This document shows positions 3,349 to 25,159 of a stretch of DNA of 64,000 nt, piece after piece; within the stretch, counting starts at the first letter, position 1; every line of letters starts with the position of its first letter. Made by a program: the position numbers and the translations under genes. The stretch lies in the NCBI RefSeq assembly GCF_024502345.1, contig NZ_JALDNN010000001.1; one strand, given 5' to 3'. This DNA comes from Escherichia coli (GTDB taxonomy: Bacteria; Pseudomonadota; Gammaproteobacteria; Enterobacterales; Enterobacteriaceae). The notes beneath the pieces are model-generated. The model did not search any database and was not told the DNA's origin. It worked only from the letters and a program-made list of their open reading frames with translations.

Positions 3349-3396
3349 GGGGGCTTCCTTAAACTGTCAGGTCCAATATCTGCAATGAGGTGAAAT

Positions 3397-4146: not shown

Positions 4147-4190
4147 CACTTACATTTAAGGTATTCAGACTTTAAAAAACTTCAGAGGGC

Positions 4191-4205
4191 GGACAAATCC
4201 TGTCC
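4191..4205. promoter_or_regulatory. palindrome GGACA-N5-TGTCC (copy 2 of 3), candidate operator
   Basis: gcGGACAaatccTGTCCgc, 44 nt upstream of the ATG at 4249. Confidence 0.45.
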
Positions 4206-4248
4206 GCTACTGCTGGCATCATTTCCCGGCTAAATTCGGAAATGATGT

Positions 4249-4962: not shown

Positions 4963-5393
4963 AATCACAACATATTATTAGTGATGATTAAATCACATTA
5001 ACATGATAAGTGAGAAAGTTATGATTATCGATAAAGAATACGCACTTGTAAATGCAACAGCAAGACTTAACACTGACCTGAGGGATTATGAATATGAAAT
5101 AAACAACGCCGCCATCATAACATTTGGCAATGACCTCATTGAGGTAATCGTATATCAGTTCAGCTTTGTCATCAGCATCAGGGCAGAGGGTGAAAAAATA
5201 AAGCACGGCCTACTTGTTAACTTCGGTAAAAATATAGCAAGACAGGTTTCATCACTTTGTGCATCCGCAATGCGAGTCTACCCGAATGAAAAACACAAAC
5301 CGAGCCGTCAGCTTTTCCATTGCATAAATTAGTTTGTGCAAAGACTGTACTACCGACACGCAATAAATTAAAATAGGCCAGCTAATATAACAT

Positions 5394-7271
5394 ATGAGGT
5401 TTATGATGGCTGGCCAGTATGAAAAAGCAATAACGATAAAACAAGCGATAGATTCAATTAATTTACGCCACTATCTTCTGCCTGCAATTCAGAGGAAGTT
5501 CGTCTGGAGCAGCAGTCAAATATGTTTGCTGTTTGATTCCATCATGCGAGACTACCCGATAAACTCTTTCATGATGTGGGATATCCGTAGTGCCAGTATT
5601 AAAAATGATTACAAATTCTATGAATTCCTGAAAGAATACTGTCAGCGATTTAATGAAGAAAACCCCTGCGTAGCAACAAATGCTGGATTTCATGATTTCA
5701 AGGCGGTGATTGATGGTCAGCAGCGTCTCACATCATTATATATTGGATTGTGTGGAACGTATGCGTATAAACAGCCCCGGGTGTGGTGGCCTTCGGCACA
5801 GGATGATCGCATCCTGCCGCCCAGAAAGCTTTACGTCGATTTAACAGCGCCACTTAATTCAGACGATGAGCTCATGATGAAGTATAACTTCAGGTTCCTG
5901 ACCGACAAGCAATACGCTGATTCACTTACAGACAACAAGCATCACTGGTTCTGCCTGCACGAAATATTCAAATACGAGCAACATGATTCGCCTGATGATA
6001 TTTTATTTAACGTTGTCGTACCAGAACTCGAAAAAAGAGGACTCATTTCCAGTGAATTTTCCAGAAAAACATTACTGAGACTTTATACAAAAATAAGAAC
6101 TGAGAACATCATCCACTACTTCAATGAGAGTAGTCAGGATATTGACCATGTGCTGGATGTTTTCATACGCACGAACAGCGGGGGGACAAAACTTGAGTTC
6201 TCCGACTTACTGATGTCAATAGCGGTAGCGCACTGGCAGGGTGATTTCAGAAGAGAACTGGATGAACTGACAAAAAACATTTATCAGAATAATGAAATGG
6301 GGTTTTATATTGAAAGAGACTGGTTCTTAAAAACCAGCCTGATGCTTATTGACTCTGACGTCCGGTTCAAAGTAAAAAACTTCACTTCAGAGGAGGTCGG
6401 TAAGATACAACAACAATGGTCTGAAATAAAATCCTGCATCAAGGAGACTTTTATTCTTATCAGGCGATTCGGCATCAATCCACAGTCTTTGATATCTAAA
6501 AATGCAGTCATTCCTGTGGTCTACTGGCTTTACAAAAAGCAAACCAGTGGACATCCATTATATACAACGATTAACCTCCTGAATAAAAACCACAATGAAC
6601 GCTCAGTAATTAGCCAGTGGTTTTACATGGTACTTCTGAAAGGGATCTTTGGAAGCCAGGCAGATGCGCTACTCACGAGTATCAGAGATGTAATGAAAAA
6701 TAGTCTTTCAGATATTCACTTTCCTCTTGAAAAGATTATTGACAGATATAAAGGCTCGAATAAAGACCTCAGATTTGACGACGAATACATCGAAAGCCTT
6801 CTCAATATCAGATATGGCGAAGGTCGTTGCCGCGCACTATTGCATCTTCTGTTCCCTGAAATGAATCCGACCGAGGTGTTTCATATTGATCACCTTCACC
6901 CAAGAAATCACTTCTCAAAGAAATATCTTGAAAAATTAGATTATGTTGCGAACTCACCAGAGAACCTCAGCTTTTATGAAAACCCGGAACACTGGGACAC
7001 CATACCTAATCTTCATTTACTGAATCATTCTCAGAATATAAGTAAACAGGATACTTCCCTGAAACAATGGCTATCTCAGCCATCAAACAACTATTCGCCA
7101 TCAATGCTGTTAGTTTCAGATGAAAATATTGAGTTCAGTCGCTTCCCGGAATTCTACAATGAACGAAGAAACGCCCTGAAGCAAAGACTACTGAATCGGG
7201 TATTTCTTACAACAAAAATAGATTCATCACCATCCACAATCGATACGGATGAAGAAATTCTCACCGACTGA
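5394..7271 (+). CDS. DUF262/DUF1524 protein, GmrSD-like putative type IV (modification-dependent) restriction endonuclease
   Basis: N-terminal DUF262 hallmark ...AVIDGQQRLTSL... (DGQQR motif); C-terminal His-rich HNH-like region ...FHIDHLHPRNHF...; sits directly upstream of hsdM. Confidence 0.75.
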   Translation: MRFMMAGQYEKAITIKQAIDSINLRHYLLPAIQRKFVWSSSQICLLFDSIMRDYPINSFMMWDIRSASIKNDYKFYEFLKEYCQRFNEENPCVATNAGFHDFKAVIDGQQRLTSLYIGLCGTYAYKQPRVWWPSAQDDRILPPRKLYVDLTAPLNSDDELMMKYNFRFLTDKQYADSLTDNKHHWFCLHEIFKYEQHDSPDDILFNVVVPELEKRGLISSEFSRKTLLRLYTKIRTENIIHYFNESSQDIDHVLDVFIRTNSGGTKLEFSDLLMSIAVAHWQGDFRRELDELTKNIYQNNEMGFYIERDWFLKTSLMLIDSDVRFKVKNFTSEEVGKIQQQWSEIKSCIKETFILIRRFGINPQSLISKNAVIPVVYWLYKKQTSGHPLYTTINLLNKNHNERSVISQWFYMVLLKGIFGSQADALLTSIRDVMKNSLSDIHFPLEKIIDRYKGSNKDLRFDDEYIESLLNIRYGEGRCRALLHLLFPEMNPTEVFHIDHLHPRNHFSKKYLEKLDYVANSPENLSFYENPEHWDTIPNLHLLNHSQNISKQDTSLKQWLSQPSNNYSPSMLLVSDENIEFSRFPEFYNERRNALKQRLLNRVFLTTKIDSSPSTIDTDEEILTD

Positions 7272-7474
7272 ACGTTCAGCCCCGATAGTATTGGGGCTTC
7301 AGTATTTATCATCAGCGCAACGTTTCTACTGGCCTGGCTGAAAGAGCATTGGCTACACAACCGGGCAAACGAACTCTCAGTGCAACGTATGACATACAAA
7401 GCCTGTCATCAATATGAAATTGCGATAAAATCGGGCCAATAACAGTACTTAAGAATCATACAACAGGATACAAA

Positions 7475-9031
7475 ATGACAAGCCTTCAGCAGCGTGCAGA
7501 GCTACACCGTCAAATCTGGGCCATTGCCAATGATGTCAGAGGCTCCGTAGATGGGTGGGATTTTAAACAGTATGTACTCGGTGCACTTTTCTACCGCTTC
7601 ATCAGTGAGAATTTTTCCAGCTACATGGAAGCAGGGGATGAGAGCATACATTATGCAGCACTTGATGACAGCATCATTACCGATGACATCAAAGACGATG
7701 CCATCAGGACTAAAGGCTATTTCATCTACCCGAGCCAGCTGTTCTGCAACGTTGCCGCTAAAGCGAACACCAACGACAGGCTGAATGCTGATTTAAACAG
7801 TATCTTCGTCGCTATAGAAAGCTCTGCCTACGGCTACCCGTCAGAGGCCGACATCAAAGGCCTGTTCGCCGATTTCGATACGACCAGCAATCGACTGGGG
7901 AACACAGTTAAAGACAAAAACAGCCGTCTTGCCGCGGTTCTGAAAGGGGTTGAAGGGTTAAAACTTGGTGACTTCAACGAACATCAGATTGACCTGTTCG
8001 GTGATGCCTATGAGTTCCTGATTTCTAACTATGCCGCAAATGCCGGTAAGTCAGGCGGTGAGTTCTTTACACCGCAGCACGTCTCCAAGCTGATTGCACA
8101 ACTGGCTATGCACGGGCAGACCAGCGTTAACAAAATCTACGACCCGGCAGCGGGTTCCGGCTCACTGTTGTTGCAGGCGAAAAAACAGTTTGATAACCAC
8201 ATCATCGAAGAAGGCTTTTTCGGTCAGGAAATCAACCATACGACCTATAACCTGGCGCGTATGAACATGTTTTTGCACAATATCAACTACGACAAGTTTG
8301 ATATCAAGCTGGGTAATACACTGACTGAGCCGCACTTCAGAGATGAAAAACCGTTTGACGCCATCGTATCTAATCCACCGTATTCGGTGAAATGGATTGG
8401 CAGCGATGACCCGACGCTGATTAACGATGAACGTTTTGCCCCGGCTGGCGTTCTGGCCCCCAAATCCAAAGCTGACTTTGCGTTTGTATTACATGCACTG
8501 AACTATCTTTCTGCCAAAGGTCGTGCTGCGATTGTCTGCTTCCCGGGTATTTTTTACCGTGGCGGCGCAGAGCAGAAAATCCGTCAATATCTGGTCGACA
8601 ATAACTATGTCGAAACCGTGATTTCACTGGCACCGAACCTGTTCTTTGGCACCACCATTGCCGTCAATATTCTGGTGCTGTCTAAACATAAAACGGATAC
8701 CAAAGTTCAGTTTATTGATGCCAGCGAATTATTCAAAAAAGAGACTAACAACAATATCCTGACCGATGCCCATATCGAACAGATTATGCAGGTATTTGCC
8801 AGCAAGGAAGATGTTGCTCATCTGGCGAAATCTGTCGCGTTTGAGACCGTTGTCGCTAATGACTATAACCTGTCGGTGAGCTGCTATGTAGAAGCGAAAG
8901 ATAACCGCGAAATTATCAATATTGCTGAGCTAAATGCAGAGCTTAAAACTACGGTTAGCAAAATCGACCAGTTGCGTAAAGATATTGATGCGATTGTGGC
9001 TGAAATTGAAGGCTGCGAGGTGCAGAAATGA
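7475..9031 (+). CDS. hsdM: type I restriction-modification system, N6-adenine DNA methyltransferase subunit HsdM
   Basis: 518 aa; NPPY motif ([10 protein letters not shown]); AdoMet-binding region [10 protein letters not shown]; stop overlaps the hsdS start (ATGA). Confidence 0.95.
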
Positions 9032-10200
9032 GCGAGTTGAGTTATCTGGAAAAATTGCTGGATGGGGTTGAGGTTGAGTGGAAATCATTGGGAGATGTTG
9101 TAAATTTTCAGCGCGGAAGGCGGCTCGTAAAATCTCAGTTAGAAACCAGAGGTAAATATGCGGTTTACCAAAACAGCATGACACCACTCGGTTACTATCA
9201 TGAGTATAATGTCGCAGCTCAATCTTCGTTCATTATCTGTGCGGGTGCAGCCGGTGAAATTGGTTATAGCGAAAATGAATTTTGGGCTGCCGACGATGTT
9301 CATTTCGCAATCACACCAGAATATATAAATGACAGGTTTTTGTTTCATTTTTTGTTGACGCAAAAGAATAAAATTTCAGGACAAGTACGCCGTGCCAGTA
9401 TTCCGCGTCTCTCAAAGTCAGTAATTGAAAAACTTGAATTCCCCATCCCCTGCCCGGATAATCCGGAAAAGTCCCTTGCCATCCAGTCTGAAATCGTTCG
9501 GATTCTGGATAAATTTACTGCACTTACCGCTGAGCTTACCGCTGAGCTTAACATGCGTAAAAAACAGTACAACTACTATCGCGACCAGTTGCTGAGTTTT
9601 GATGAGGGTGAGGTTGAGTGGAAGGCTTTGGAGGAAGTCTCAACTTTTGCTAATGGAAAGGGGCATGAAAAAGACATATCAGAAGACGGTAAATATATTG
9701 TTGTAAACTCTAAGTTTATATCTACCAATGGCGAAGTCGCCAAGTTATCAAACAAACAGCTATGCCCTCTTTTTAAAGACGATATTCTTTTGGTTATGAG
9801 TGACCTGCCCAATGGCAAAGCACTTTCAAAAACATTTATTGTTGATGAAGATCATAAATACACTTTAAACCAACGTATTGGTGGAATTACAGTAAAAAAC
9901 AGTAATGAATTACTCCCTAAGTTTTTGCACTATTTTTTAAATAGAACCCCGCAATTGCTGAAACATGACAATGGTGTTGATCAAACAAATTTGCGTAAAG
10001 GTCAAATACTTGAAGTAAAAATACCAATAATTTCACTCATCAAACAAGTTCAGATCGTTGAAACTCTTGATAAATTCGATACTTACACTAAGTCGATTTC
10101 AGAAGGCCTCCCGCGCGAAATCGAGCTGCGCCATAAACAGTACGAGTACTATCGTGATTTATTGTTCAGCTTCCCGAGACCAGAAACCGCCAGCAACTGA
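9028..10200 (+). CDS. hsdS: type I R-M specificity subunit HsdS (type IC-like)
   Basis: Two target-recognition domains separated by a conserved central region with the TAEL repeats (LTAELTAEL) and a related C-terminal repeat (...[14 protein letters not shown]). Confidence 0.9.
9523..9550 (+). repeat. 12-bp direct repeat CTTACCGCTGAG x2 (plus partial CTTA) in the hsdS central spacer region
   Basis: Read directly: cttaccgctgag cttaccgctgag ctta, encoding LTAE-LTAE-L. Confidence 0.9.
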
Positions 10201-10316
10201 CGGACCATTGATACCGGCAGGGTTTGTTCTCACCCGCCCGGTATCAGGCTTTAAGAATGCCGGAAGATGCTTCTGATACCCTTCCGGAATTTGCCAGATG
10301 ACGCACAGGATGCACC

Positions 10317-13300
10317 ATGACACAACAGATACACACCATTGCTGAATCCAATAACTTTATCGTCCTTGATAAATACACCAAAGTTCTGGAGAACGGCGAC
10401 AGCTACCAGAGCGAATCGGATCTTGAGCGGGAACTGATTCAGGACCTTCTGAATCAGGGCTATGAATTTATATCCGTTAAGTCACCGACAGCGATGCTGG
10501 CGAATGCACGGGACCAGCTTCAGCATCTTAATGGTGTGGTGTTTAACGAAAGTGAATGGCGGCGCTTCGCAGAGCAGTATCTGGACAGCCCCAGTGACAG
10601 CAGCCTGGACAAAACTCGTAAAATCCATATCGACTATATCTGTGATTTCACGTTTGATGACGGTCGTCTGGAAAACATCTATCTGATAGATAAAAAGAAC
10701 CTGCTGCGCAATAAGGTGCAGGTCATTCAGCAGTTTGAACAGACCGGCTCACACGCTAACCGTTATGACGTCACCATTCTGGTTAACGGCCTGCCACTGG
10801 TGCAAATCGAACTCAAAAAGCGCGGCGTGGCTATTCGTGAAGCCTTTAACCAGATACACCGTTACAGCAAGGAAAGCTTTAACAGCGACAACTCCCTGTT
10901 TAAATACCTGCAACTGTTTGTGATATCTAACGGAACCGATACCCGGTACTTTGCCAGTACCACTAAGCGGGATAAAAACAGCTTTGATTTCACCATGAAC
11001 TGGGCGAAGTCGGATAACACTCTGATTAAGGACCTGAAGGACTTTACCGCCACCTTCTTCCAGAAACATACCCTGCTGAATGTTCTGTTTAATTACAGCG
11101 TGTTTGACAGCAGCCAGACTCTGCTCGTCATGCGCCCCTATCAGATTGCCGCCACTGAGCGAATCCTCTGGAAAATTAACAGCTCATTTAAAGCGAAGAA
11201 TTGGTCAAAACCCGAAAGCGGCGGGTTTATCTGGCATACCACCGGGTCAGGCAAAACCCTGACCAGTTTTAAGGCTGCACGACTGGCAACCGAACTGGAC
11301 TTTATAGACAAAGTCTTCTTCGTGGTCGACAGAAAAGACCTTGATTACCAGACAATGAAGGAGTATCAGCGCTTTTCTCCGGACAGCGTCAACGGTTCGG
11401 ATAATACAGCAGGCCTCAGAAGAAACCTGGATAAGGACGATAACAAAATCATCGTCACAACCATTCAGAAACTCAATAACCTGATGAAAGCCGAAGCTGA
11501 CCTGCCCGTCTATCAGCAGCAGGTAGTGTTTATCTTTGATGAGTGTCACCGCAGCCAGTTTGGTGAGGCCCAGAAAAACCTCAAAAAGAAATTCAGACGC
11601 TTTTATCAGTTTGGTTTTACCGGTACGCCTATTTTCCCGGAAAATGCACTGGGGGCAGAAACCACAACCAGCGTGTTCGGGCGTGAGTTACATTCTTACG
11701 TCATTACTGATGCGATTCGTGATGAAAAAGTACTGAAGTTTAAGGTGGACTATAACGATGTCCGCCCACAGTTTAAGTCTCTTGAAACGGAAACAGACGA
11801 GAAAAAACTCAGCGCGGCTGAAAACCAACAGGCATTTTTGCACCCCCTGCGTATCCAGGAAATAACGCAATACATTCTCAATAACTTCCGGCAGAAAACA
11901 CACCGAACCTTCCCGGGAGCTAAGGGCTTTAACGCCATGTTAGCAGTTAGCAGCGTGGACGCGGCGAAAGCTTATTACACGACGTTTAAAATGCTACAGG
12001 AAGAAGCAGAGAAGAAATCTGGCAGCTATAAATGCCTTCGGGTGGCAACCATCTTCTCCTTTGCTGCAAATGAAGAGCAAAGCGCCATTGGTGATATTAC
12101 TGACGAAAGCTTTGATACCAGTGCAATGAACAGCAGCGCGAAGGAATTCCTGGATTCAGCCATTGATGACTATAACAATCACTTTAAAACCAATTTCAGC
12201 ACCGACAGTAACGGTTTCCAGAACTACTACCGCAATTTAGCTCAACGAGTGAAAAATCAGGATATTGACCTTCTCATCGTGGTGGGAATGTTCTTGACTG
12301 GCTTTGATGCCCCGACGCTTAACACTCTTTTCGTTGACAAAAACCTCCGTTATCACGGCCTGATGCAGGCATTTTCCCGCACAAACCGTATCTATGATGC
12401 CACCAAAACCTTCGGCAATATCGTGACTTTCAGGGATCTGGAGCGTCCGACCATTGATGCCATCACACTATTTGGCGACAAAAACACCAAGAATGTGGTG
12501 CTGGAAAAAAGCTACGAAGAGTACATGCAGGGCTTTACCGATGCGGCAACCGGTGAGGCTAAACGAGGTTTTATGGCTGTTGTTTCGGAGCTGGAGCAGC
12601 GCTTCCCTGACCCTGCCAGTATCGACAGTGAAAAAGAGAAAAAAGCCTTCGTCAAACTGTTTGGTGAATATCTGCGGGCAGAAAACATCCTGCAAAACTA
12701 TGATGAATTTGCCACGCTGAAAGCCCTGCAGAAGGTTGATATTAGTGACCCGGAAGCGGTAGAAACCTTTAAAGCAGAGCACTATGTGGATGATGAAAAA
12801 TTTGCTGAATTACAAACCATTCGTCTCCCGGCAGAACGTAAAGTTCAGGACTATCGCTCAGCATACAATGATATCCGGGACTGGCAGCGACGCGAAAAAG
12901 CATCAAACGACAGGGATAAATCAACCACAGACTGGGATGACGTGGTGTTTGAAATTGACCTGCTGAAGTCGCAGGAAATTAACCTGGATTACATCCTTGG
13001 TCTGATTTTCGACCACAATCGTCAGAAAAAAGGTAAAGAAGCCCTGACTGAAGAGGTCAGACGCTTAATCCGCTCAAGTCTGGGCAACCGTGCCAAAGAA
13101 GGTCTGATTGTTGACTTTATTCAGCAAACTAACCTTGATGACATGCCGGACAAGGCCAGTATCATTGATGCATTCTTTACCTATGCTCAGCGTGAACAGC
13201 AACGGGAAGCAGAGGCGTTGATTAAGGAAGAAAACCTCAATGAAGAGGCTGCAAGGCGCTATATCCGCACATCACTAAAACGGGAGTATGCCACCGAAAA

Positions 13301-13433
13301 TGGGACGGAGCTAAATGAGACGCTACCAAAGCTCAGTCCGCTGAATCCTCAGTACAAAACGAAAAAGCAGACTGTATTCCAGAAAATTGGGGCATTTATC
13401 GAAAAATTTAAAGGGGTTGGAGGACACCTCTAG
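10317..13433 (+). CDS. hsdR: type I R-M restriction subunit HsdR (SF2 helicase/translocase plus nuclease)
   Basis: 1038 aa; Walker A ([10 protein letters not shown]) and DEAD-box motif II ([10 protein letters not shown]). Confidence 0.95.
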
Positions 13434-13654
13434 ATGTCAGATAAAAGAACAATGCGCTACCGCAATTTATGGGTAAGATTGTATCTTTTAACCTGCATCA
13501 GACCTGTTATGATCGATGAGGCGCTGGTTAATGTTAATGCTAACTGGATGAGTTTTAATCGCTGATTCAGACAATTAGCGTCCAGAACTCACAGAAACCA
13601 GTGCTTGATTTTGGATGGTAAAGTGCTGAACGGACGTATCACAGGAGAATGCTT

Positions 13655-13993
13655 ATGAGCGTAACTATAAAAGACGATCGACTCCGTACCATCGCTACCT
13701 TTGACGGTAAAACCCTGAAAGACGACCGGCTCAGGACCATCGCAACGTTTGACGGTAAAACCCTGAAAGACGACCGGCTCAGAACCATCTCAACTTTTGA
13801 CGGTAAAACCCTGAAAGACGACCGACTCCGCACCATCGCTACCTTTGATGGCAAGACCCTGAAAGACGATCGACTCCGCACCATCGCAACATTTGATGGT
13901 AAAACACTTAAAGACGATCGACTCAGAACCATCGCGACAGTTAATGGTAATGTTAGTATTGTTGTTTTGGCGTTTGCTGCTCGGCTATTTTAG
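13655..13993 (+). CDS. small repeat protein: five 16-aa tandem repeats (KDDRLRTIATFDGKTL) and a hydrophobic C-terminal tail
   Basis: Copies differ almost only at synonymous codon positions in this frame (for example Arg as cgt, agg, aga, cgc), which argues for real coding sequence; AGGAGA 7 nt upstream of the ATG at 13655. Confidence 0.5.
   Translation: MSVTIKDDRLRTIATFDGKTLKDDRLRTIATFDGKTLKDDRLRTISTFDGKTLKDDRLRTIATFDGKTLKDDRLRTIATFDGKTLKDDRLRTIATVNGNVSIVVLAFAARLF
13670..13939 (+). repeat. 48-bp tandem repeat, about 5.6 copies
   Basis: Direct inspection; units begin AAAGACGA(C/T)CG(A/G)CTC... Confidence 0.9.
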
Positions 13994-14270
13994 GGCTAAG
14001 AGCCTATCTCAACAGAGATTAATACTTTACCCAAAAGATATAATATCAGTATCTAAAAGCCTGCACCGTCTGATTTTTAGTCATTGAATCGCGAGAACGG
14101 GAGATAATTTCTCTTCTATGGGTATAGGCTCATAATGGTAGGATTCTGGTAGCTTCGAAACGCCGTATTTAAGCAATACTTAAGTCATGAAGAACCAAAC
14201 TTAAACATTTTTCTCAAGGTAAACCAGTAAAAAACTGTTAGTGCTGATGGATCGTTTGGGCTCTTTTAAA

Positions 14271-14319
14271 GGGATTGAAAATCCCCGTGTCCTTGGTTCG
14301 ATTCCGAGTCCGGGCACCA
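14271..14319 (+). tRNA. tRNA-Phe 3' fragment (anticodon stem to CCA), not a complete gene; likely an island attachment-site remnant
   Basis: GGGATTGAAAATCCCCGTGTCCTTGGTTCGATTCCGAGTCCGGGCACCA matches the 3' two-thirds of enterobacterial tRNA-Phe (GAA anticodon) as I recall it; no matching 5' acceptor or D arm upstream. Confidence 0.7.
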
Positions 14320-14516
14320 AATTCATATCAACGGACCTCCACGGAGGTCCGTTTTTCGTTTCAGAACGCCACAATTTAAGCGTTCTGCCTCCAAATCAAT
14401 TCTACCGAACTCAACCAGATTCCCCCCACATCAACCCCATTGTGTGGGTATAATTGCGGGTATACCCCAGTTCGACAGAATTTGTACCCTCTTTAACGCA
14501 TTCAGAAGGCTGAACT

Positions 14517-15782
14517 ATGGCACTGACTGACGCAAAAATCCGGGCTGCAAAGCCCACTGACAAGGCTTATAAACTCACTGACGGGGCCGGCATGTTCCTG
14601 CTGGTTCATCCTAATGGTTCCCGTTACTGGCGTCTCCGTTATCGTATTCTGGGTAAGGAGAAAACCCTGGCACTTGGTGTGTATCCGGAAGTTTCTCTCT
14701 CCGAAGCTCGTACAAAACGGGATGAGGCCCGAAAACTGATTTCGGAGGGGGTTGACCCTTGCGAACAGAAAAGAGCTAAAAAAGTAGTCCCTGATTTACA
14801 ACTCTCTTTTGAACATATTGCACGACGCTGGCATGCCAGTAATAAACAATGGGCACAATCACACAGCGATAAAGTACTCAAAAGCCTCGAGACACACGTT
14901 TTCCCCTTTATCGGCAACCGGGATATCACAACACTCAGTACCCCGGACCTGCTTATCCCTGTTCGTGCTGCAGAAGCTAAACAAATTTATGAAATCGCCA
15001 GTCGTCTGCAGCAAAGAATATCTGCTGTAATGCGTTATGCCGTACAGTCTGGCATCATCAGATATAACCCGGCTCTGGATATGGCTGGTGCATTGACCAC
15101 GGTAAAACGCCAGCATCGCCCTGCTCTGGATCTTTCACGCCTGCCTGAACTTCTGTCGCGTATTGACGGTTATAAAGGCCAGCCTGTCACCCGACTGGCA
15201 GTTATGCTGAATTTACTGGTTTTTATTCGTTCCAGTGAACTCAGATATGCCCGCTGGTCTGAAATTGATATTGACAATGCCATGTGGACTATTCCAGCCG
15301 AACGCGAACCTCTGCCAGGCGTAAAATTTTCATACCGGGGCTCCAAGATGCGAACACCACATCTTGTGCCACTCAGCCAACAGGCTGTAGCCATACTGGC
15401 AGAACTTCAGACATGGGCAGGTGAAAATGGTCTGATCTTTACGGGAGCACATGACCCACGTAAACCAATCAGTGAAAACACCGTAAATAAAGCCCTGAGG
15501 GTTATGGGGTATGACACAACCCAGGATGTCTGTGGTCATGGATTCCGGGCGATGGCATGTAGTGCATTAATAGAATCAGGTTTGTGGTCCCGCGATGCTG
15601 TGGAACGCCAGATGAGCCATCAGGAGCGTAATGGTGTACGTGCTGCGTATATCCATAAAGCCGAACATCTGGAAGAACGTCGACTTATGCTACAGTGGTG
15701 GGCCGATTTTCTGGATGCAAACAGAGAAAGATTTATCAGTCCATTTGAATATGCAAAGATTAATAATCCATTAAAACAATAA
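14517..15782 (+). CDS. int: P4-type tyrosine integrase
   Basis: 421 aa; N-terminus MALTDAKIRAAKPTDKAYKLTDGAGMFLLVHPNGSRYWRLRYR is characteristic of P4-like integrases; lies about 200 bp downstream of the tRNA-Phe fragment. Confidence 0.9.
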   Translation: MALTDAKIRAAKPTDKAYKLTDGAGMFLLVHPNGSRYWRLRYRILGKEKTLALGVYPEVSLSEARTKRDEARKLISEGVDPCEQKRAKKVVPDLQLSFEHIARRWHASNKQWAQSHSDKVLKSLETHVFPFIGNRDITTLSTPDLLIPVRAAEAKQIYEIASRLQQRISAVMRYAVQSGIIRYNPALDMAGALTTVKRQHRPALDLSRLPELLSRIDGYKGQPVTRLAVMLNLLVFIRSSELRYARWSEIDIDNAMWTIPAEREPLPGVKFSYRGSKMRTPHLVPLSQQAVAILAELQTWAGENGLIFTGAHDPRKPISENTVNKALRVMGYDTTQDVCGHGFRAMACSALIESGLWSRDAVERQMSHQERNGVRAAYIHKAEHLEERRLMLQWWADFLDANRERFISPFEYAKINNPLKQ

Positions 15783-16103: not shown

Positions 16104-17603
16104 TTACCTGTGGTCCGGAAGAATAAGTGGCTGCGGTTTCAGACTGTCTGCCGGCACATTTTTCTCTCCGTTAAAAACCATAACGGGTTCATTATCTTCG
16201 TCTGTCAGCGGATTGAATGGCGGTATATTTTCGGTACGAATACCGGTCAGCCACTGAAAAATGCCTGCGAAATTACGGGCACTGATTTTCCTGCTGACGG
16301 ACTGATGAGACGTGATGTCACTGGCGGTAATAATCAGGGGAACGCTGTAGCCCCCCTGCACATGACCATCATGATGAACAGGATTAGCACTGTCGCTGAC
16401 CGACAGCCCATGGTCAGAAAAGTAAAGCATTGCAAAGTGACGGGAATGCCGGCGAAGGATACCATCAAGCTGATCGAGAAAGTTATCCAGTTTACTGATG
16501 CTGGCGAGGTAACAGGCAATCTTTCGGGGATACTGCTCCAGGTAATAATTCGGCCAGGAGTTAAGTCGGTCACACGGATTCGGATGAGAGCCAATCATGT
16601 GCAGGAAAATCACCTTCGGCGAGGATTTATCCGCCAGCGCACGTTCTGTTTCCTGTAACAACAACATGTCATCCGTTTTACGGGAAGCGAAGCTGCCTTT
16701 CTTGAGGAAAACGGTATGCTCCGCATCAGAAGCAATAACAGAGATGCGTGTGTCATGCTCTCCCAGTTTTCCCTGATTGGATATCCACCATGTGCTGTAT
16801 CCTGCTTTTGCTGCCAGCGCCACCACGTTGTTGCCGGAGTCAGGGTTCTGCTCATAGTCATAAATCAGTGTCCGGCTCAGGGAAGGTACGGTACTGGCTG
16901 CTGCCGATGTATAGCCGTCAATAAATAAACCGGGAGCCGTATTCAGCCATGGTGTGGTTGGCACGGGATAGCCATATACCGACATATAATCCCTGCGCAC
17001 ACTCTCACCAGTAACGATAACAATCGTGTCATACAACGGTGTTCCCGGCAGGATTTTCCAGTTGTCAGCCCCGTGCTGACTCAGTTGTTTATAACGCTGC
17101 ATTTCACGCAATGTGTCAGTTGTTCCCACAACAATTCCTTTAACCATCCGCAACGGCCAGCTGTTTACAGAGCATAATACGAACAGCAGCAGTGCCAGCC
17201 AGTTACGGTGACCGCGGTGGTGTGTCCGCCAGAAAATCACCATGAATACCAGAATCGCGGCACTGACCAGAAAATGATAAACAGGAATCATCCCGGTAAA
17301 CTCTGCAGCCTCATCAGCCGTGGTCTGCAGCAACGCGACAATAAAACTGTTGTTGATTTTACCGTACGTCATACCCGCAGGCGCATACAGTGCACAACAG
17401 AACAGAAATAACAGCGTTGTAATGGATGTGAGGGTATTTCTGTGTGCAAGGAGAAGAAGGAGAAACAGAAGCAGCACATTTCCTGTGGCATTCTTCTCAG
17501 TGTATCCGCATGCAATTGTGATTATCACAGAAATAACAAAAAAGAATAAAAACAATAAAATCCGGGGTGTGTCGCCCGGACAAAACAGTTTTCTGATATT
17601 CAT
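16104..17603 (-). CDS. sulfatase-family phosphoethanolamine transferase (EptA/YhbX-like inner membrane protein)
   Basis: N-terminal multi-TM region then sulfatase-like domain with ...IVTGESVRRDYMSVYGY... and ...IFLHMIGSHPNP... motifs. Confidence 0.7.
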   Translation of the reverse strand: MNIRKLFCPGDTPRILLFLFFFVISVIITIACGYTEKNATGNVLLLFLLLLLAHRNTLTSITTLLFLFCCALYAPAGMTYGKINNSFIVALLQTTADEAAEFTGMIPVYHFLVSAAILVFMVIFWRTHHRGHRNWLALLLFVLCSVNSWPLRMVKGIVVGTTDTLREMQRYKQLSQHGADNWKILPGTPLYDTIVIVTGESVRRDYMSVYGYPVPTTPWLNTAPGLFIDGYTSAAASTVPSLSRTLIYDYEQNPDSGNNVVALAAKAGYSTWWISNQGKLGEHDTRISVIASDAEHTVFLKKGSFASRKTDDMLLLQETERALADKSSPKVIFLHMIGSHPNPCDRLNSWPNYYLEQYPRKIACYLASISKLDNFLDQLDGILRRHSRHFAMLYFSDHGLSVSDSANPVHHDGHVQGGYSVPLIITASDITSHQSVSRKISARNFAGIFQWLTGIRTENIPPFNPLTDEDNEPVMVFNGEKNVPADSLKPQPLILPDHR

Positions 17604-17762: not shown

Positions 17763-18503
17763 TCAGAAGTTATAAGTCACACCAAGCATGATGTCATGAC
17801 TTTTAACATCAACCTCTGATTTATATTTATCGCCCCACTCATCCTTGTAACTCACACTGCTGTCACCTGCATCAATATAGCGATAGCTGAGGTCAAGAGC
17901 GATATCCGGGGTTACGTCATAACGGACACCAGCCCCAAGGCTCCATGCAAAGTTGTCAGCAGAGTCTGAGTGTGACAACGACTCACGCCCACTGTACCCG
18001 TACCCGTAATCCCAAGTACTGATACCAGTTGTTTTCTGATGAATTCTGGCGTAACCAATCCCTGCGGATACCCATGGTGTGAATGCACTGTCGTTCCGGA
18101 AGTCATAGTACGTATTCAGCATCAGAGTGTTGACTGACACTTCATTCTTCAGGTCATCACGCCAGTAACCACCTGACCAGCTGTCTTTATCTACGTTATA
18201 CTTCGAATCAGCTTTTCCACGCGCGTAAAACTCCAGTTCTGTACGAACCGGAATACTGAACTGCGGATAAAAATCATAACCGGCCGCAATACCGCCACTG
18301 AATACCGTATCATGGTCATCGCCGCCTTTATACTTTGACGTTTCTTCCTCATCTCCTGACAGGAAACGCTGGTCTGAAAGTGACACCACAGAGGCACCGG
18401 CTTTACCGGTCAGATAAAAACCGCTTTTACCTTCCTCAGCACCTGCATTTGCTGCAAATACACAGGCTGCGGCCACCACTGAAACAGCAAAAACCTTTTT
18501 CAT
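17763..18503 (-). CDS. outer membrane beta-barrel protein, Tia/Hek/PagN-like (Ail/OmpX superfamily)
   Basis: Signal peptide MKKVFAVSVVAAACVFAANAGA; alternating aromatic beta-strand pattern; C-terminal ...GVTYNF. Confidence 0.6.
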   Translation of the reverse strand: MKKVFAVSVVAAACVFAANAGAEEGKSGFYLTGKAGASVVSLSDQRFLSGDEEETSKYKGGDDHDTVFSGGIAAGYDFYPQFSIPVRTELEFYARGKADSKYNVDKDSWSGGYWRDDLKNEVSVNTLMLNTYYDFRNDSAFTPWVSAGIGYARIHQKTTGISTWDYGYGYSGRESLSHSDSADNFAWSLGAGVRYDVTPDIALDLSYRYIDAGDSSVSYKDEWGDKYKSEVDVKSHDIMLGVTYNF

Positions 18504-19445: not shown

Positions 19446-19709
19446 ATGAAGAAGCGTTTTTCCGACGAACAGATCATATGTATTCTCCGCGAGGCCGAAG
19501 CTGGCGTTTCTGCCCGTGAGCTCTGCCGTAAGCACGCCATTTCCGACGCCACCTTTTACACATGGCGTAAGAAGTATGGCGGTATGGAGGTGCCTGAGGT
19601 TAAGCGCCTGAAGTCGCTTGAGGAAGAGAACGCCAGACTCAAGAAGCTGCTTGCCGAAGCCATGCTGGATAAAGAGGCGCTTCAGGTGGCTCTTGGGCGA
19701 AAGTACTGA
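19446..19709 (+). CDS. IS3-family transposase OrfA (HTH)
   Basis: [49 protein letters not shown]... Confidence 0.85.
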
Positions 19710-19732
19710 CGACAGACCAGAAGCGGGAAGCC

Positions 19733-20566
19733 GTGATGTTGATGTGTGATGCGACCGGTCTGTCGCAACGTCGTGCCTGCAGGCTTACAGGTTTATCCCT
19801 GTCGACCTGCCGCTATGAGGCTCACCGTCCGGCTGCTGATGCGCATTTATCAGGGCGCATCACTGAGCTGGCACTGGAGCGCAGGCGTTTTGGCTACCGT
19901 CGTATTTGGCAGTTGCTGCGCCGTGAAGGGCTTCATGTTAATCATAAGCGCGTGTACCGGCTTTATCACCTCAGTGGCCTGAGCGTAAAACGCAGAAGAC
20001 GTCGTAAAGGGCTGGCAACAGAACGTCTGCCGCTGCTCCGTCCGGCGGCGCCCAATCTGACCTGGTCGATGGATTTCGTCATGGACGCACTTTCCACCGG
20101 TCGCAGGATCAAGTGTCTTACCTGCGTCGATGATTTCACAAAGGAATGCCTGACGGTCACTGTTGCCTTTGGGATTTCAGGCGTTCAGGTCACGCGTATT
20201 CTGGACAGCATTGCACTGTTTCGAGGCTATCCGGCGACGATAAGAACTGACCAGGGGCCGGAGTTCACTTGCCGTGCACTGGATCAATGGGCCTTTGAGC
20301 ATGGTGTTGAGTTGCGCTTAATCCAGCCGGGCAAGCCAACGCAGAACGGATTTATTGAGAGCTTTAACGGACGATTTCGCGATGAATGTTTGAATGAGCA
20401 CTGGTTCAGCGATATCGTTCATGCCAGGAAAATTATTAATGACTGGCGGCAGGATTATAACGAATGCCGCCCGCACTCCACGCTGAATTATCAGACACCG
20501 TCTGAATTTGCAGCGGGCTGGAGAAAGGGTCATTCTGAGAATGAAGATTCCGACGTTACTAACTGA
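19733..20566 (+). CDS. IS3-family transposase OrfB (DDE integrase-like catalytic domain)
   Basis: ...[10 protein letters not shown]...[50 protein letters not shown]... Confidence 0.85.
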
Positions 20567-20812
20567 GTGTTGTATCTAATCGTGGGGGCAGGTCACTCGA
20601 CTTGGTTCCATTAAAAACCATGAAGTTGATATAGGGTCAAGATTTTATACGATATACACATCAAGCATCTTGCATGAGTCGCACTGACTGACCCGGGTTA
20701 GTTACCATCATATTCTTTATGGTTGAGACCATACGGAAATCAGTGAATTAAAAATATTTATTCATCCAAAACACAAATGGTTTTAAGAAAGCCTAATGCC
20801 CTTCTTGTAAAA

Positions 20813-21082
20813 TTATTCAAGATAGTCAAGTATGTTTTTTATATTGTCAATTAAGGCGACATGCAGGTCAGGGTCATCACATTCATCTGAATGGCAATAG
20901 GAAATATGTTGAAGTATAATTCTTTTTTTGAATTCACTAACTGTACACTCCAACTCATACACCGACCGTACGATATCAATACAAGGTTCATCATCGATTA
21001 AAAAATCCTGCATTTTATTATACTTATCAGTCAGATCTTCTATCATAGAAATTAATACGGGGTCATTAACTAACATTGGCAT
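20813..21082 (-). CDS. hypothetical small acidic protein (89 aa)
   Basis: ORF 20813..21232 trimmed to the ATG preceded by AGGAGA; AT-rich; no family recognised. Confidence 0.35.
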   Translation of the reverse strand: MPMLVNDPVLISMIEDLTDKYNKMQDFLIDDEPCIDIVRSVYELECTVSEFKKRIILQHISYCHSDECDDPDLHVALIDNIKNILDYLE

Positions 21083-21470
21083 ATCTCTCCTCATAATCTG
21101 AAAGTAAAGATGGACACAGCGCTGATAAATTCCAATTCCCTTGCTTGCGGTACCGACCGGGAGGAAGATGAAACTTGTTTTTAAAAGCTCTCGTGAAAGT
21201 TTGTTGCGAATTAAAACCATACTGAAGTGCAATGTCTAGGACTGTTCTGGAAGTCAATTTCAGATCAATCGCAGCACATGATAATCGACGAGCACGAACA
21301 TATTCACCCAGCGCAACACCGGTCGTCTGTTTAAACAAACGTTGAAAATGCCATCGTGAATACCCAGACTTCTCAGCAATAAATTCTACTGGCAAGGTTG
21401 TATTCAATGAACTTTCAACCCACTGCAAAATATCTTTGACAACACTTTCAGAATATTTCCTGGTGTCCAT
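21066..21470 (-). CDS. AraC-family transcriptional regulator of the MarA/SoxS/Rob type
   Basis: ...KSGYSRWHFQRLFKQTTGVALGEYVRARRLSCAAIDLKLTSRTVLDIALQYGFNSQQTFTRAFKNKFHLPPGRYR aligns in my recollection with MarA/SoxS dual-HTH domains. Confidence 0.7.
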   Translation of the reverse strand: MDTRKYSESVVKDILQWVESSLNTTLPVEFIAEKSGYSRWHFQRLFKQTTGVALGEYVRARRLSCAAIDLKLTSRTVLDIALQYGFNSQQTFTRAFKNKFHLPPGRYRKQGNWNLSALCPSLLSDYEERYANVS

Positions 21471-21562
21471 TCTCTCCCCCCAAACCATATTCTATGAATA
21501 TATTCAAACCAGAATACGGTCTCTGAGTCTGTCATCCATGAAGAACTCAGGGACCCAACTCT

Positions 21563-24064
21563 TTATTTTCGTAATAACCTCAGGCCATTTGCCACAACCA
21601 GAAGACTGGCACCAACATCAGCAAATACAGCCATCCACATAGTTCCCATTCCCATGAGCGTGAGTACAAGGAATACGGCTTTAATACCTAGAGCGAGGCT
21701 GATATTTTGCACGAGTAAGCTGTACGTTTGTCGGGATAATTTTACAAAGGCTGGGATTTTACGCAGGTCATCATCCATTAAGGCTACATCTGCAGTTTCA
21801 ATCGCCGTATCAGTACCCATTGCGCCCATAGCAAAACCGATATCAGCTGCAGCCAGAGCCGGTGCATCATTGATACCATCACCAACCATCCCAGTGATTC
21901 CAATCCGTGAATGCTCTTCAACTGCACGATGTTTATCTTCTGGCAATTGATTCCCTCGAGCCTCATCGATTCCAACCTGAGATGCGATTGCTTTAGCTGT
22001 ATGTGGGTTATCACCAGTCAGCATAATAGTTTTAACGCCAAGTTCATGAAGTTGTTCAATCGCTTCACGGCTGCTGTTTTTAACAGTATCAGCAACAGCG
22101 AACAACCCAAGCACTTGCTTACCATCATTGAGTAAAATAACTGTTTTACCCTGGCTTTCCAGCCTTTGTACTGTTGCTTTAATCTCTGATGGACAATTAA
22201 AGTGTTCTTCAGTCAAACGCAGGTTACCAAGGTAAAAATCCTTACCTGTAATCGCGCCATGCACACCTCGCCCAACAATCGCTTCAAAGCTGTCAACATC
22301 CTGCTTTTTCAAATCAGCAGAAGCATTCACAATTGCCAGTGAAACAGGGTGATCAGAGTAACTAGCGAGACTAGCTGCAGTAGTACGAACTTCACGCTCG
22401 CTCCACCCATTGAATACCATTACGTCGGTTTGTACTGGTTTCCCATAGGTAATAGTTCCTGTTTTATCCAGCGCAAGGGCTTTTAGCTTACGTCCCTGCT
22501 CAAGATAAACACCGCCTTTAATGAGAATCCCTTTGCGAGCAGCTGCAGTAAGTCCACTAACAATCGTTACTGGCGTAGAAATAACCAGGGCACATGGACA
22601 CGCAATGACAAGCATAACTAAAGCTTTATAGATCCACTCCTGCCATGTTCCTGCCCCAAACAATGGTGGCAATACAGCAACCGCAACAGCAATACCCATA
22701 ACGACGGGGGTATAAATCTGGGAAAAGCGGTCAACAAAACGTTGTGTAGCTGCTTTGGCGCCTTGCGCCTGCTCAACGGCATGAATGATGCGAGCAAGGG
22801 TTGTATTATTTGCAGCTGCAGTGACTTTATATTCAAAAGAGCCTGACTGATTTATTGTTCCAGCAAATACAGCATCGCCCGCAATTTTATCGACAGGCAT
22901 ACTTTCACCTGTAATTGGAGCTTGGTTAATGGTGGTTTGGCCTTTGACGATTTCTCCGTCGAGACCAATTCGTTCACCTGGTTTTACCCTGACAATACTG
23001 CCCGGTTGTACGCTACTGGCGTCAACTTCCTGCCATGTTCCATCAGCTTGTTGGACCATTGCAGTTTCAGGAGTCAGGTTCATCAGGGAACCTATTGCAT
23101 TTCTGGCTCTATCAAGTGATTTGGCTTCTATCAGCTCGGCAATGGTGAATAACACCATAACCATCGCCGCTTCTGGCCACTGCCCAAGGACCAAAGCCCC
23201 AGTAACGGCAATACTCATTAGTGCATTGATATTCAAGTTGCCATTGCGAATCGAAATCCAACCTTTTTTGTAGGTTGTCAGACCACAAGAAAGCACTGCT
23301 ATCAAAGCCAACCCAGCTTCTAGCCAGTCAGGCATATCAGCCCAGTGCATCACTTCGGCTGCAAGAGCAGCTACGCCAGCAAGAGCTAATGGCCACCAGG
23401 GCTTTTTTTTCTCCTGGGTATTTTTCTTGCCGCTAGTATTATCAGAGACTTCTGGCGCGAATCCCAACGAGCGAATTGCAGCCATGATAGCTTCAAGCGA
23501 ATCCGGTGTATGGGTTACAGTCAAAACACGCTGCATCAGGTTGAAATCAAGCTCTTTAACAGCGCTCATTCCACCCAGTTTCTTTTTGATAAGATTTTCT
23601 TCAACAGGACAATCCATCTGCATAATGCGAATTTCTGTCCGTAATCCACCAGCCACAACCTGCGAGCCCCCTAGGCTACTCAATTGTTCTGGAGCAGCGG
23701 AGCAACAATCCCCCTCATGGCCGTGATCGTGGCCTTCATGAGAATGCTCTTGCGCGGCATGAGCATGGTTACATCCCTTATGATTATGCTCATCATGCGA
23801 ATGCCCTTCGCCGCCATGGCTATGGGCATCATGATTATGGCCTTCATGGTTATGGCCTTCATGGTTATGACCTTCATGGGAATGATCATCACTGCATTTC
23901 TTGTGATTATGAGCCTGCTGATCATGTGCATGATCATTTGCTTTATGTGATTCACCAGTATTCTTAACCCGGAGTCCTGTCCCTAAATTGAACGTTTCAC
24001 AGCAACTAGCCGCTTCGTCTCCTGCAGGGTTTTTGCTATTTTTTACACCACCACTCATTTTCAT
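21563..24064 (-). CDS. cadA: heavy-metal translocating P1B-type ATPase (Zn/Cd/Pb-type, CadA/ZntA-like) with His-rich N-terminus
   Basis: 833 aa; N-terminal HEGHNHEGHNHEGHNH repeats; CPC membrane motif (IACPCALVIS); phosphorylation motif DKTGT; [10 protein letters not shown] hinge. Confidence 0.9.
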   Translation of the reverse strand: MKMSGGVKNSKNPAGDEAASCCETFNLGTGLRVKNTGESHKANDHAHDQQAHNHKKCSDDHSHEGHNHEGHNHEGHNHDAHSHGGEGHSHDEHNHKGCNHAHAAQEHSHEGHDHGHEGDCCSAAPEQLSSLGGSQVVAGGLRTEIRIMQMDCPVEENLIKKKLGGMSAVKELDFNLMQRVLTVTHTPDSLEAIMAAIRSLGFAPEVSDNTSGKKNTQEKKKPWWPLALAGVAALAAEVMHWADMPDWLEAGLALIAVLSCGLTTYKKGWISIRNGNLNINALMSIAVTGALVLGQWPEAAMVMVLFTIAELIEAKSLDRARNAIGSLMNLTPETAMVQQADGTWQEVDASSVQPGSIVRVKPGERIGLDGEIVKGQTTINQAPITGESMPVDKIAGDAVFAGTINQSGSFEYKVTAAANNTTLARIIHAVEQAQGAKAATQRFVDRFSQIYTPVVMGIAVAVAVLPPLFGAGTWQEWIYKALVMLVIACPCALVISTPVTIVSGLTAAARKGILIKGGVYLEQGRKLKALALDKTGTITYGKPVQTDVMVFNGWSEREVRTTAASLASYSDHPVSLAIVNASADLKKQDVDSFEAIVGRGVHGAITGKDFYLGNLRLTEEHFNCPSEIKATVQRLESQGKTVILLNDGKQVLGLFAVADTVKNSSREAIEQLHELGVKTIMLTGDNPHTAKAIASQVGIDEARGNQLPEDKHRAVEEHSRIGITGMVGDGINDAPALAAADIGFAMGAMGTDTAIETADVALMDDDLRKIPAFVKLSRQTYSLLVQNISLALGIKAVFLVLTLMGMGTMWMAVFADVGASLLVVANGLRLLRK

Positions 24065-24090
24065 TGCCTCATCTGTTAACTATACTGACG

Positions 24091-24121
24091 ATTAAAGACC
24101 CTAATCTAACTAGAGGGTCAA
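24091..24121 (-). promoter_or_regulatory. MerR-type promoter/operator (divergent region between the ATPase gene and cadR)
   Basis: Minus-strand TTGACC (-35), 19-bp spacer containing the dyad GACCCT...AGGGTC, then TTTAAT (-10); the 19-bp spacer with internal dyad is the MerR-family signature. Confidence 0.6.
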
Positions 24122-24139
24122 GCGCATAAGGGGGGAGGC

Positions 24140-24592
24140 ATGAAAATTGGTGAATTGGCCCGTAAGGCGGATTGTCCGGTGGAAACTATTCGGTACTATG
24201 AGAAAGAAGGATTACTTCAGGCTCCATTAAGAGATATTGAAAATAACTATCGCCGTTACAACAATACTCATCTGGAAAAGTTATTATTTATCCGACGCTG
24301 CCGCTCTCTTGATATGACCCATGAGGAAATACGTGCATTGCTACTGGCAATGAATAATCACGGTAAAGACTGTGGCCCCATTGATGCAATAATCAGTGCC
24401 CATCTCACTCATGTTCAGCATCGTATTAAAGAATTAATAGCCCTGGAAATACAACTCAAAGAACTTAATAACTATTGCAGCTCAGACCGGAGCGTGGACG
24501 AATGCGGGATAGTACAGAAATTGACTGCTGATGAAGAGAATGGTGATCTTCCTTTAACCGTACCAACTGACCACTTGGGGGGTGTGCATTAG
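24140..24592 (+). CDS. cadR: MerR-family metal-responsive regulator, CadR/PbrR-like
   Basis: MKIGELARKADCPVETIRYYEKEGLL...; divergent from the P-type ATPase gene. Confidence 0.8.
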   Translation: MKIGELARKADCPVETIRYYEKEGLLQAPLRDIENNYRRYNNTHLEKLLFIRRCRSLDMTHEEIRALLLAMNNHGKDCGPIDAIISAHLTHVQHRIKELIALEIQLKELNNYCSSDRSVDECGIVQKLTADEENGDLPLTVPTDHLGGVH

Positions 24593-24681
24593 TGGTGTGC
24601 GCTTATAAGTTGATTAGACTGATGGCGTAACACAAGCCCATACAGCTTTGTGCTACGCCATCATGCCCTTAAAATAAGGGG

Positions 24682-25146
24682 TCAGGCTTTTTCCATTTCG
24701 TTACCACGAGAACGACGTTGCACTGCCCCTTCTCTCTTACCGGGATGGCTTTTAGCATCAGCGGTCATTAATGTCTGGAGTATTGGGCATTCAACTCGCT
24801 CATCCCCAGCACAGCTTTTGATCAGAGCTCTGAGTGTATCTGCCATTCGTCGCATATTTTCCATACGTCGCTCTAAATCATCCATATGCTCTTGTGCCAG
24901 ACGTTTAACATCGGCGCTCTGGCGAGATTTGTCATTCCATAACTTGAGCAAATCGGCTATCTCTTCAAGAGAAAAACCAAGATCGCGCGCACTGCGGATA
25001 AAAATCAGACGATGGACATCATTGGGTGCATAATCACGGTAGCCCGCTTCGGTACGGCCAGTAGCAGGAATCAGACCAATTTGCTCGTAATAGCGAATCA
25101 TCTTTGCGGAGATTCCTGATTCGTTCGATGCTTTACCAATGTTCAT
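24682..25146 (-). CDS. cueR: MerR-family copper-responsive regulator, CueR-like
   Basis: ORF 24682..25284 trimmed to MNIGKASNESGISAKMIRYYEQIGLIPA...; C-terminal Cys pair ...CAGDERVEC...; immediately downstream of copA. Confidence 0.8.
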   Translation of the reverse strand: MNIGKASNESGISAKMIRYYEQIGLIPATGRTEAGYRDYAPNDVHRLIFIRSARDLGFSLEEIADLLKLWNDKSRQSADVKRLAQEHMDDLERRMENMRRMADTLRALIKSCAGDERVECPILQTLMTADAKSHPGKREGAVQRRSRGNEMEKA

Positions 25147-25159
25147 AGCTCCCCTTTTC

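Follow-up and report, generated by a model that had tools for sequence, protein, structure and literature searches.

The GI-pheV and GI-pheU islands of E. coli, which carry a P4-type integrase (intP4) and occupy the tRNA-Phe genes pheV and pheU, end on their far side in a repeat of 19-23 bp (PMC11537424), reported as 22 bp in a second description (PMC6174562). Elements with a longer repeat at the same genes are also known: ICEPm1, ICEPm2 and ICEPm3 from Proteus mirabilis use pheV or pheU, are bounded by a 52-bp direct repeat, 51 bp of which lie in the gene, and occur in tandem in AR379 (PMC11278526). More generally, Islander distinguishes attP sites centred on the anticodon (A) from those in the T-stem/junction (J), and holds 3919 islands, with 125 tandem arrays among them (PMC4383910). 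The build-up of such arrays has been described as tandem accretion, following the ICESt1/CIME model cited in PMC11278526. Moreover, E. coli ST101 has been reported to carry a pheU island that encodes a type I restriction-modification (R-M) system (bioRxiv 10.1101/2020.06.07.138552). When we searched the literature, we found no specific description of a 49-bp repeat of tRNA-Phe in enterobacteria.

We focused our attention on position 14271 and its surroundings in a 64,000-nucleotide stretch of E. coli DNA, referred to here as the window. Judged from sequence comparison, this region is the seam between two tandem islands, an R-M island on the left (L) and an island with a P4-type integrase on the right (R). 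The seam is of an ordinary and already known kind, as tDNA fragments at island ends, tandem arrays, intP4 islands at pheV or pheU and long-repeat integrators at tRNA-Phe have all been described. It appears to follow the scheme of the Islander tandem arrays, i.e., a regenerated tRNA, a first island, a tDNA fragment in gene orientation, a second integrase and a second island. It differs from them in that the window shows the middle of the array only, with L's fragment and R's integrase inside it and L's integrase and R's fragment outside, and in that L and R use different sub-sites of one tRNA, with identity blocks of 49 nt and 19-23 nt, respectively.

At the seam itself, positions 14271-14319 on the plus strand, which read GGGATTGAAAATCCCCGTGTCCTTGGTTCGATTCCGAGTCCGGGCACCA, are identical at 49 of 49 bases to positions 28-76 of the E. 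coli tRNA-Phe encoded by pheV and pheU. The block takes in everything between the second base of the anticodon stem and the CCA, both included: the anticodon stem minus its first base, the anticodon loop, the variable loop, the T arm and the 3' acceptor strand. The 27 bases located 5' of it match the 5' part of tRNA-Phe at only four positions, which is the chance level. The first-pass annotation of this DNA had described a piece consisting of only the 3' 49 nt of tRNA-Phe, with the 5' half missing, and had named an intact tRNA-Phe directly upstream as one finding that would speak against its reading; the description is confirmed, and no such gene stands there. In agreement, ARAGORN detected no tRNA gene in the entire 64-kb window, and Rfam returned no tRNA (RF00005) at the gathering score in the window and none at E ≤ 10 over 14100-14520, so that by both programs the fragment lacks the complete cloverleaf expected of a functional tRNA gene. 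A match to the Rfam family cow-rumen-3 over 14100-14520 was discarded as noise, with 11.8 bits as to a gathering score of 86.7. When a 23-nt probe for the 3' end of tRNA-Phe was run with up to three mismatches, the fragment was its single match in the window, and 100 shuffles gave none.

The DNA to the left of the fragment was then compared with other genomes. Positions 1-468 are the end of an IS903B element (IS5 family), whose terminal inverted repeat, ending in GATTTATTCAACAAAGCC, stops at 468 and abuts L; about 1800 E. coli genomes have IS903B copies with 98.5-99.2% identity to this stretch, and all L homologues align from position 469 only. The right-hand part of L, approximately 13.8 kb at 469-14270 (plus strand), is collinear with the L islands of G3/10, 2018-01-1CC and MB15. 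It carries, by Pfam content, a GmrSD-type DUF262 gene (5394-7271), the type I R-M genes hsdM (7475-9031), hsdS (9028-10200) and hsdR (10317-13433), and a gene for a 5-fold beta-flower protein (13655-13993), together with small genes, DUF2787, LRAT-like, DUF3944 and HTH genes. About 40 complete E. coli genomes have a collinear island, with about 96% identity at best, and the closest sequence is a Logan contig of 13.9 kb (L045), 99.94% identical over 469-7531. Immediately to the left of the fragment, 14136-14270 (plus strand) forms a conserved terminal arm, the putative P arm of L's attP: these approximately 135 nt are kept in 30 L-type right ends (13 of them distinct) from E. coli, Enterobacter, Kluyvera, Pseudocitrobacter and Mixta, and the cargo farther left differs, which is the appearance that an att arm would be expected to have.

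The nature of L becomes clearer in genomes where both of its ends are present. The MB15 locus equals that of K-12 pheV with a 20,982-bp insertion, in which L extends from an intact tRNA-Phe at the left end to these 49 nt at the right end, followed by the native flank and yghD. The 2018-01-1CC locus corresponds to K-12 pheU, the yjdQ integrase remnant included, to which L and one IS1 have been added. In G3/10, also at pheU, the order is tRNA-Phe, L with a 394-aa integrase (int394), the 49 nt and an intact P4-type integrase (int421). In the window and in these three genomes alike, the 49-nt fragment stands at the right end of L in the same orientation as the gene. The regenerated intact tRNA-Phe and an internal integrase of L were found in MB15, 2018-01-1CC and G3/10, and in two further sequences (L041 and L044); in the window, L is interrupted or cut at 468 by IS903B, which the first-pass annotation had overlooked, and its recombination module and an intact tRNA-Phe would lie beyond the window. 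In the relatives, the left-end genes of L encode the 394-aa tyrosine integrase, a small Arm-domain protein, a DUF927/Cch-like helicase and a second integrase, and the island also carries a GmrSD-type enzyme and a type I R-M system. An Edwardsiella sequence (L012) considered as a link between int394 and the left end was rejected, as it has an L-type left end after a fragment, yet no int394 homologue. Altogether, these comparisons identify L as a discrete integrative element, whose insertion duplicates 49 bp of tRNA-Phe and for which the pheV and the pheU copies both serve as sites, and very probably as an integrative defence island of Enterobacterales of roughly 21-23 kb. By its description, the ST101 island may be comparable to L. 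With the ICEPm elements it shares the class of long identity block at tRNA-Phe; these are conjugative elements of 88-93 kb, in contrast to the about 21 kb of L with its defence cargo and no conjugation genes seen, and the two are likened by their repeats.

In all likelihood, then, the fragment is the displaced 3' part of a tRNA-Phe gene, serving as the attR repeat of L, as had been proposed from the sequence of the window, and the MB15 island, which ends with the same 49 nt, bears this out. The alternative of a tRNA gene truncated by random deletion, by insertion of foreign DNA or by a sequencing or assembly error has the missing 5' half as its sole support. It is exceedingly improbable, given that dozens of independent genomes, and 29 species representatives as well, all have the break at exactly position 28, and that every case checked has an intact tRNA copy at the other end of the island. 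We assign the 49-nt length to L, and not to the adjoining integrase, because P4-type islands at pheV and pheU leave only 19-23 nt. The block would fit the anticodon-loop (A) sub-site pattern, the crossover being placed from the length of the identity block only, while the 19-23-nt repeat of the intP4 islands is of the J pattern.

To the right of the fragment, R and DNA accreted to it occupy 14320-64000 (plus strand). R supplies, behind the tRNA 3' end, a terminator hairpin with a perfect 11-bp stem and a T-run (14330-14353, plus strand), a sequence that is also found 3' of intact pheV in XD35 and REL606, and 3' of pheU in K-12. Farther on, two direct repeats, TGTGGGTATA and TGCGGGTATA, are set at 12-bp spacing at 14443-14464 (plus strand; repeat family D1); the core lies about 125 bp to their left, and the integrase ATG follows about 55 bp farther on. 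These repeats are probably arm-type Int-binding sites (P' arm) of R, a function suggested by their layout, and 14320-14516 as a whole may be read as the left att arm of R, in which the repeats would play this part. The GGGTATA repeat has one more copy at 14117-14126, within L but outside its conserved arm, and this copy was taken as chance.

The integrase gene (14517-15782, plus strand) begins 197 bp 3' of the fragment and is an intact open reading frame for a P4-type tyrosine integrase of 421 aa, belonging to the intP4 family of GI-pheV/GI-pheU; the first-pass annotation had placed such a gene some 200 bp on, and the gene proves to be complete. Its three domains, Arm-DNA-bind_3 (PF13356), Phage_int_M (PF22022) and Phage_integrase (PF00589), score 102.8, 96.2 and 62.8 bits, respectively, all above the Pfam cut-offs. 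The catalytic residues R238, K277, H341, R344 and H368 are invariant, and the AAYIH motif aligns with that of phage P4 Int. P4 (X51522) offers a close parallel: its Int is 54.9% identical over 97% of the query (E = 1e-152) and has the same three-domain architecture, its core lies at a tRNA 3' end, and its attP has annotated 12-bp tandem arm repeats between core and int, in the layout seen in R. However, P4 targets leuX and not tRNA-Phe, the repeat sequences differ (GGGTATA versus GGGGGCAT), and none of the P4 replication or capsid-hijacking genes follow the R integrase. As to L, int394 is only 25% identical to the R integrase, and the two integrases of L may be regarded as unrelated to it at the level that matters.

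Comparison with genomes carrying R-type islands alone shows where R comes from. The integrase is 100% identical to WP_001218862.1, the neighbour of an intact pheV in XD35. At the DNA level, the 1830 bp of the window that begin at 14271 and extend to the right match the pheV-int region of XD35 and many other E. coli with 100% identity. The order in XD35 is intact pheV, this integrase and a phosphoethanolamine transferase; in the window, the transferase gene is found at 16104-17603 and an OMP gene at 17763-18503 (both minus strand), and the remainder includes IS elements, a heavy-metal ATPase block, a group II intron and a MADS-like defence block. In REL606, pheV is followed by the same left arm and integrase and, 15 kb on, by TTCGATTCCGAGTCCGG-CACCA and the K-12 pheV flank, so that the far-end repeat (attR) of that island is 22 nt; R-type islands in general have 22-23 nt. 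At K-12 pheU, a decayed remnant of an R-type arm and integrase (yjdQ) lies behind the gene. R thus resembles the GI-pheV/GI-pheU islands (PMC11537424; PMC6174562) in opening, right behind the 3' end of tRNA-Phe, with their left arm and a P4-type integrase, and it shares with them the phosphoethanolamine transferase, the IS elements and a methylase/defence block near the far end. Unlike in those islands, the integrase of R follows a 49-nt fragment only, another island intervenes, and R's own 19-23-nt attR is absent from the window. Indeed, searches with 23-nt, 22-nt (deletion variant) and 16-nt probes, with mismatches allowed, found no second tRNA-Phe 3' copy in the window, and R plus accreted DNA therefore extends past 64000; the far-end attR of R is either beyond the window or lost. 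The counterpart of the last 13 kb of the window continues into further island genes in APEC relatives, and relative to complete E. coli genomes R is a mosaic. The first-pass annotation had pointed to further copies of the 3' fragment in the complete genome; inside the window, there is none.

The occurrence of each island without the other bears on whether two elements are present at all. If the fragment and the integrase were the attP-int module of a single P4-type element, with the R-M genes as its other end, a circularly permuted or non-site-specific insertion would give the observed order of cargo, tRNA-like block and integrase, and the arm repeats do have a layout like that of the P4 attP. 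Nevertheless, MB15 has L alone, its 49 nt running into native chromosome, and XD35 and REL606 have R alone beside a complete tRNA, the first 27 nt of which belong to the chromosome. In addition, R-type islands end in a repeat of 22-23 nt and not of 49 nt, and L has its own, unrelated integrases. A single element is thus very improbable, and the proposal that the integrase opens a second, separate island, the junction being a tandem-island seam, is upheld by the match from 14271 rightwards to intact pheV and its integrase in XD35. With two islands in place, 14271-14319 is, with high likelihood, a hybrid site in which L's attR is fused to R's attL, the fragment being at once the attR of L and the core of the attL of R. 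For annotation purposes, 14319 is the last position of L, and R begins at 14320 or at the core common to both.

We propose that L's attP would hold a copy of tRNA-Phe positions 28-76, and that site-specific recombination, with a crossover placed in the anticodon-loop region, would rebuild an intact tRNA at L's left end and push the original 49 nt, with all DNA downstream, to the right end of L. The DNA downstream would here be R, a P4-integrase island of the GI-pheV/GI-pheU family, whose left arm, i.e., terminator hairpin, arm-type repeats and int, would always lie directly 3' of the tRNA 3' end. Which of the L integrases acts, where exactly the crossover falls and that either island can still excise are points that we infer.

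The order in which the islands arrived was also evaluated. We consider it likely, on comparative grounds, that R came first and that L then entered the regenerated tRNA-Phe. The first-pass annotation had suggested the opposite, that L left its 49-nt attR and that R then reused this fragment as its integration site (attB). This is a plausible route in itself, as the fragment keeps the complete 3' core of 22-23 nt that R-type islands duplicate, the R integrase is intact here, and integration into an attR gave the ICEPm1/ICEPm3 tandem at tRNA-PheU in Proteus (PMC11278526). Both orders yield the same sequence, and the product of one is therefore indistinguishable from the outcome of the other. Two lines of comparison favour R as the first arrival. 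First, L in 2018-01-1CC sits upstream of the dead yjdQ remnant of K-12 type, which is incapable of later integration; about 25 E. coli genomes have a match to the L end and fragment that stops at a common end-point, window position 14433, and they appear to run into this same dead integrase remnant, as checked in one and inferred from the end-point for the rest. Second, the share of E. coli with a P4-type island at pheV is about one half or higher (PMC11537424), as to about 1% for L. Moreover, exact-protein look-ups of assemblies place L with an identical hsdS in many differing right-hand contexts, which suggests that L moved recently and would be expected of a later arrival. In addition, since L would need the anticodon region, which is missing from the 19-23-nt repeat, L upstream of R would be the sole outcome if R came first, and one of two possible outcomes if L did. 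Prior arrival of L is thus conceivable, albeit rather unlikely.

The seam is not restricted to the window. Among 5426 complete E. coli genomes, 56 contain the sequence 14190-14470, five independent ones with 100% identity, and because the same sequence recurs in independent complete genomes, the junction is not an assembly artefact. When a single genome was scanned for each species, 29 Enterobacterales representatives contained the exact 49-nt fragment without the tRNA base G27 ahead of it, and the sequences on its left fall into at least five families unrelated to one another; a P4-type integrase lies 160-200 bp 3' of it in Superficieibacter, Acerihabitans, Mixta and Erwinia psidii (the last with a pseudogene). 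The overall arrangement of the window is absent from complete E. coli genomes, and the exact-protein look-ups, which turned up L in many assemblies, did not yield it either. Furthermore, NT1F34 and 30EVA2 carry a truncated hsdR, the beta-flower gene, the fragment and the integrase, with a junction 100% identical to that of the window, in an IS-rich island near clpA, which indicates that the seam can travel as a passive relic.

This last observation raises the possibility that the seam in the window was imported ready-made, by homologous recombination or an IS-mediated rearrangement, and is now a passive relic, possibly away from tRNA-Phe. The location of the same module near clpA in NT1F34 and 30EVA2, and not at a tRNA-Phe gene, points in this direction, as do the IS903B that bounds L at 468, the many IS elements of R and the lack of a complete E. 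coli genome with the window's arrangement. However, the window differs from NT1F34 in that 13.8 kb of L are intact there and collinear with the tRNA-linked copies, which is compatible with a plain insertion of IS903B into an island otherwise in place. We regard import as unlikely; in any case, it concerns the history of the seam alone, and the identity of the fragment is unaffected.

Because the fragment and the regenerated upstream tRNA would each keep a complete P4-type core, the R integrase could in principle excise either R alone or a composite circle of L and R, in an accretion-mobilisation mode, which would make the seam functional instead of a scar. We give this only a slim chance, yet if it were true, the integrase island could carry a cross-genus defence island, with its type I R-M and GmrSD genes, between hosts. 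More remote still is that read-through from the last gene of L, ending at the hairpin at 14330-14353, yields an RNA resembling a 3' tRNA half.

Overall, the seam is of little general importance, and its value is that of a clean, well-resolved case of island build-up at tRNA-Phe in Enterobacterales, with exact boundaries. A mildly useful generalisation concerns the asymmetry between sub-sites: a 49-nt fragment would be usable by a short-core P4-type integrase, whereas a short fragment would be unusable by a long-site integrase, and this predicts which tandem orders can arise. As for L itself, the comparisons present it as a widespread island that carries defence genes, of the type I R-M and GmrSD kinds, across genera.

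At the left edge of the window, we found a partial IS903B element (IS5 family; positions 1-468, the window start falling within the element), whose terminal inverted repeat stops at position 468, precisely where similarity to the restriction-modification island (island L) begins. The integrase/helicase module of island L has therefore been either displaced further left or deleted. In relatives, the left part of this island carries an unusual module (strain MB15, locus L005, 3135-10000; also loci L003, L004 and L040-L045), in which the 394-aa tyrosine integrase, int394, comes first and points rightward, while the remaining genes lie on the opposite strand. These encode an Arm-domain protein of 118 aa, a DUF927 protein that carries an HTH of the Cch type and is similar to the Cch helicase of SCCmec, and another integrase (435-470 aa). 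Between the tRNA and int394 lies a slot whose cargo varies by host, and comprises a BCCT transporter with DUF2254, dynamin-like proteins, or a restriction endonuclease with ADH and LysR.

Among 29 Enterobacterales species (loci L009-L037), at least five unrelated island-end sequences all stop at one identical base, position 28 of tRNA-Phe, and the base preceding this breakpoint is usually A. The tRNA-Phe fragment at L012 in Edwardsiella ictaluri is of this kind, and an L-type left end comes after it. In CP128618.1 (L055, 15196-21173), the 49-nt tRNA-Phe fragment leads into an L-type left end together with another complement of L cargo genes, forming an L-L' tandem without an integrase module between the two units; this resembles a cis-mobilisable (CIME-like) partner. 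In addition, Mixta tenebrionis (L022) carries a partial second copy of the L right arm, with approximately 26 nt of the fragment, directly upstream of the full 49-nt fragment (full fragment at 9548-9597, the copy approximately 100 nt before it), and this copy is an att end, nested or duplicated. The same module of truncated hsdR, beta-flower gene, 49-nt fragment and P4-type integrase was also found in strains NT1F34 (L008, 16434-21590) and 30EVA2 (L001, 19810-22383), where copies of IS1, IS21 and IS3 surround it within an island adjoining clpA rather than at any tRNA-Phe gene.

To the right of the integrase in the window, an IS1222-type (IS3 family) frameshift element was detected at 19676-19793 (Rfam, 156.6 bits), followed by a 12.8-kb heavy-metal block (20596-33424) with 100% identity to 248-271-kb secondary records of E. 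coli strain 44, which are likely plasmid contigs; in that strain, the block is annotated with two heavy-metal P-type ATPases, cueR, a CDF transporter, MFS transporters and an AAA ATPase. Further right, positions 33910-35523 hold a group II intron domain (Rfam, 64.9 bits) and an adjoining 507-aa minus-strand ORF; the regions that this ORF matches carry the annotation ltrA reverse transcriptase/maturase. Finally, a minus-strand defence block (50524-64000; DEAD/DEAH helicase, DNA methyltransferase, AIPR, Abi and an SNF2 protein) shares 99% identity with APEC O1:K1:H7 genomes, in which the adjoining gene is annotated as MAD1, a component of the methylation-associated defence system (MADS).

Regarding the spread of island L (loci L046-L065), 243 blocks of the assembly collection index it with an HsdS (390 aa) identical to that of the window, and 1000 blocks were indexed for its terminal 112-aa 5-fold beta-flower protein. 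The latter come mostly from 4.7-4.9-Mb genomes, with flanks (pga operon, NicO, KdgT) unlike those of E. coli pheV/pheU, the two tRNA-Phe gene copies. In the species scan, Enterobacter, Kluyvera, Mixta and Pseudocitrobacter had ends of the L type. Overall, island L appears to be a widespread defence island that crosses genera.
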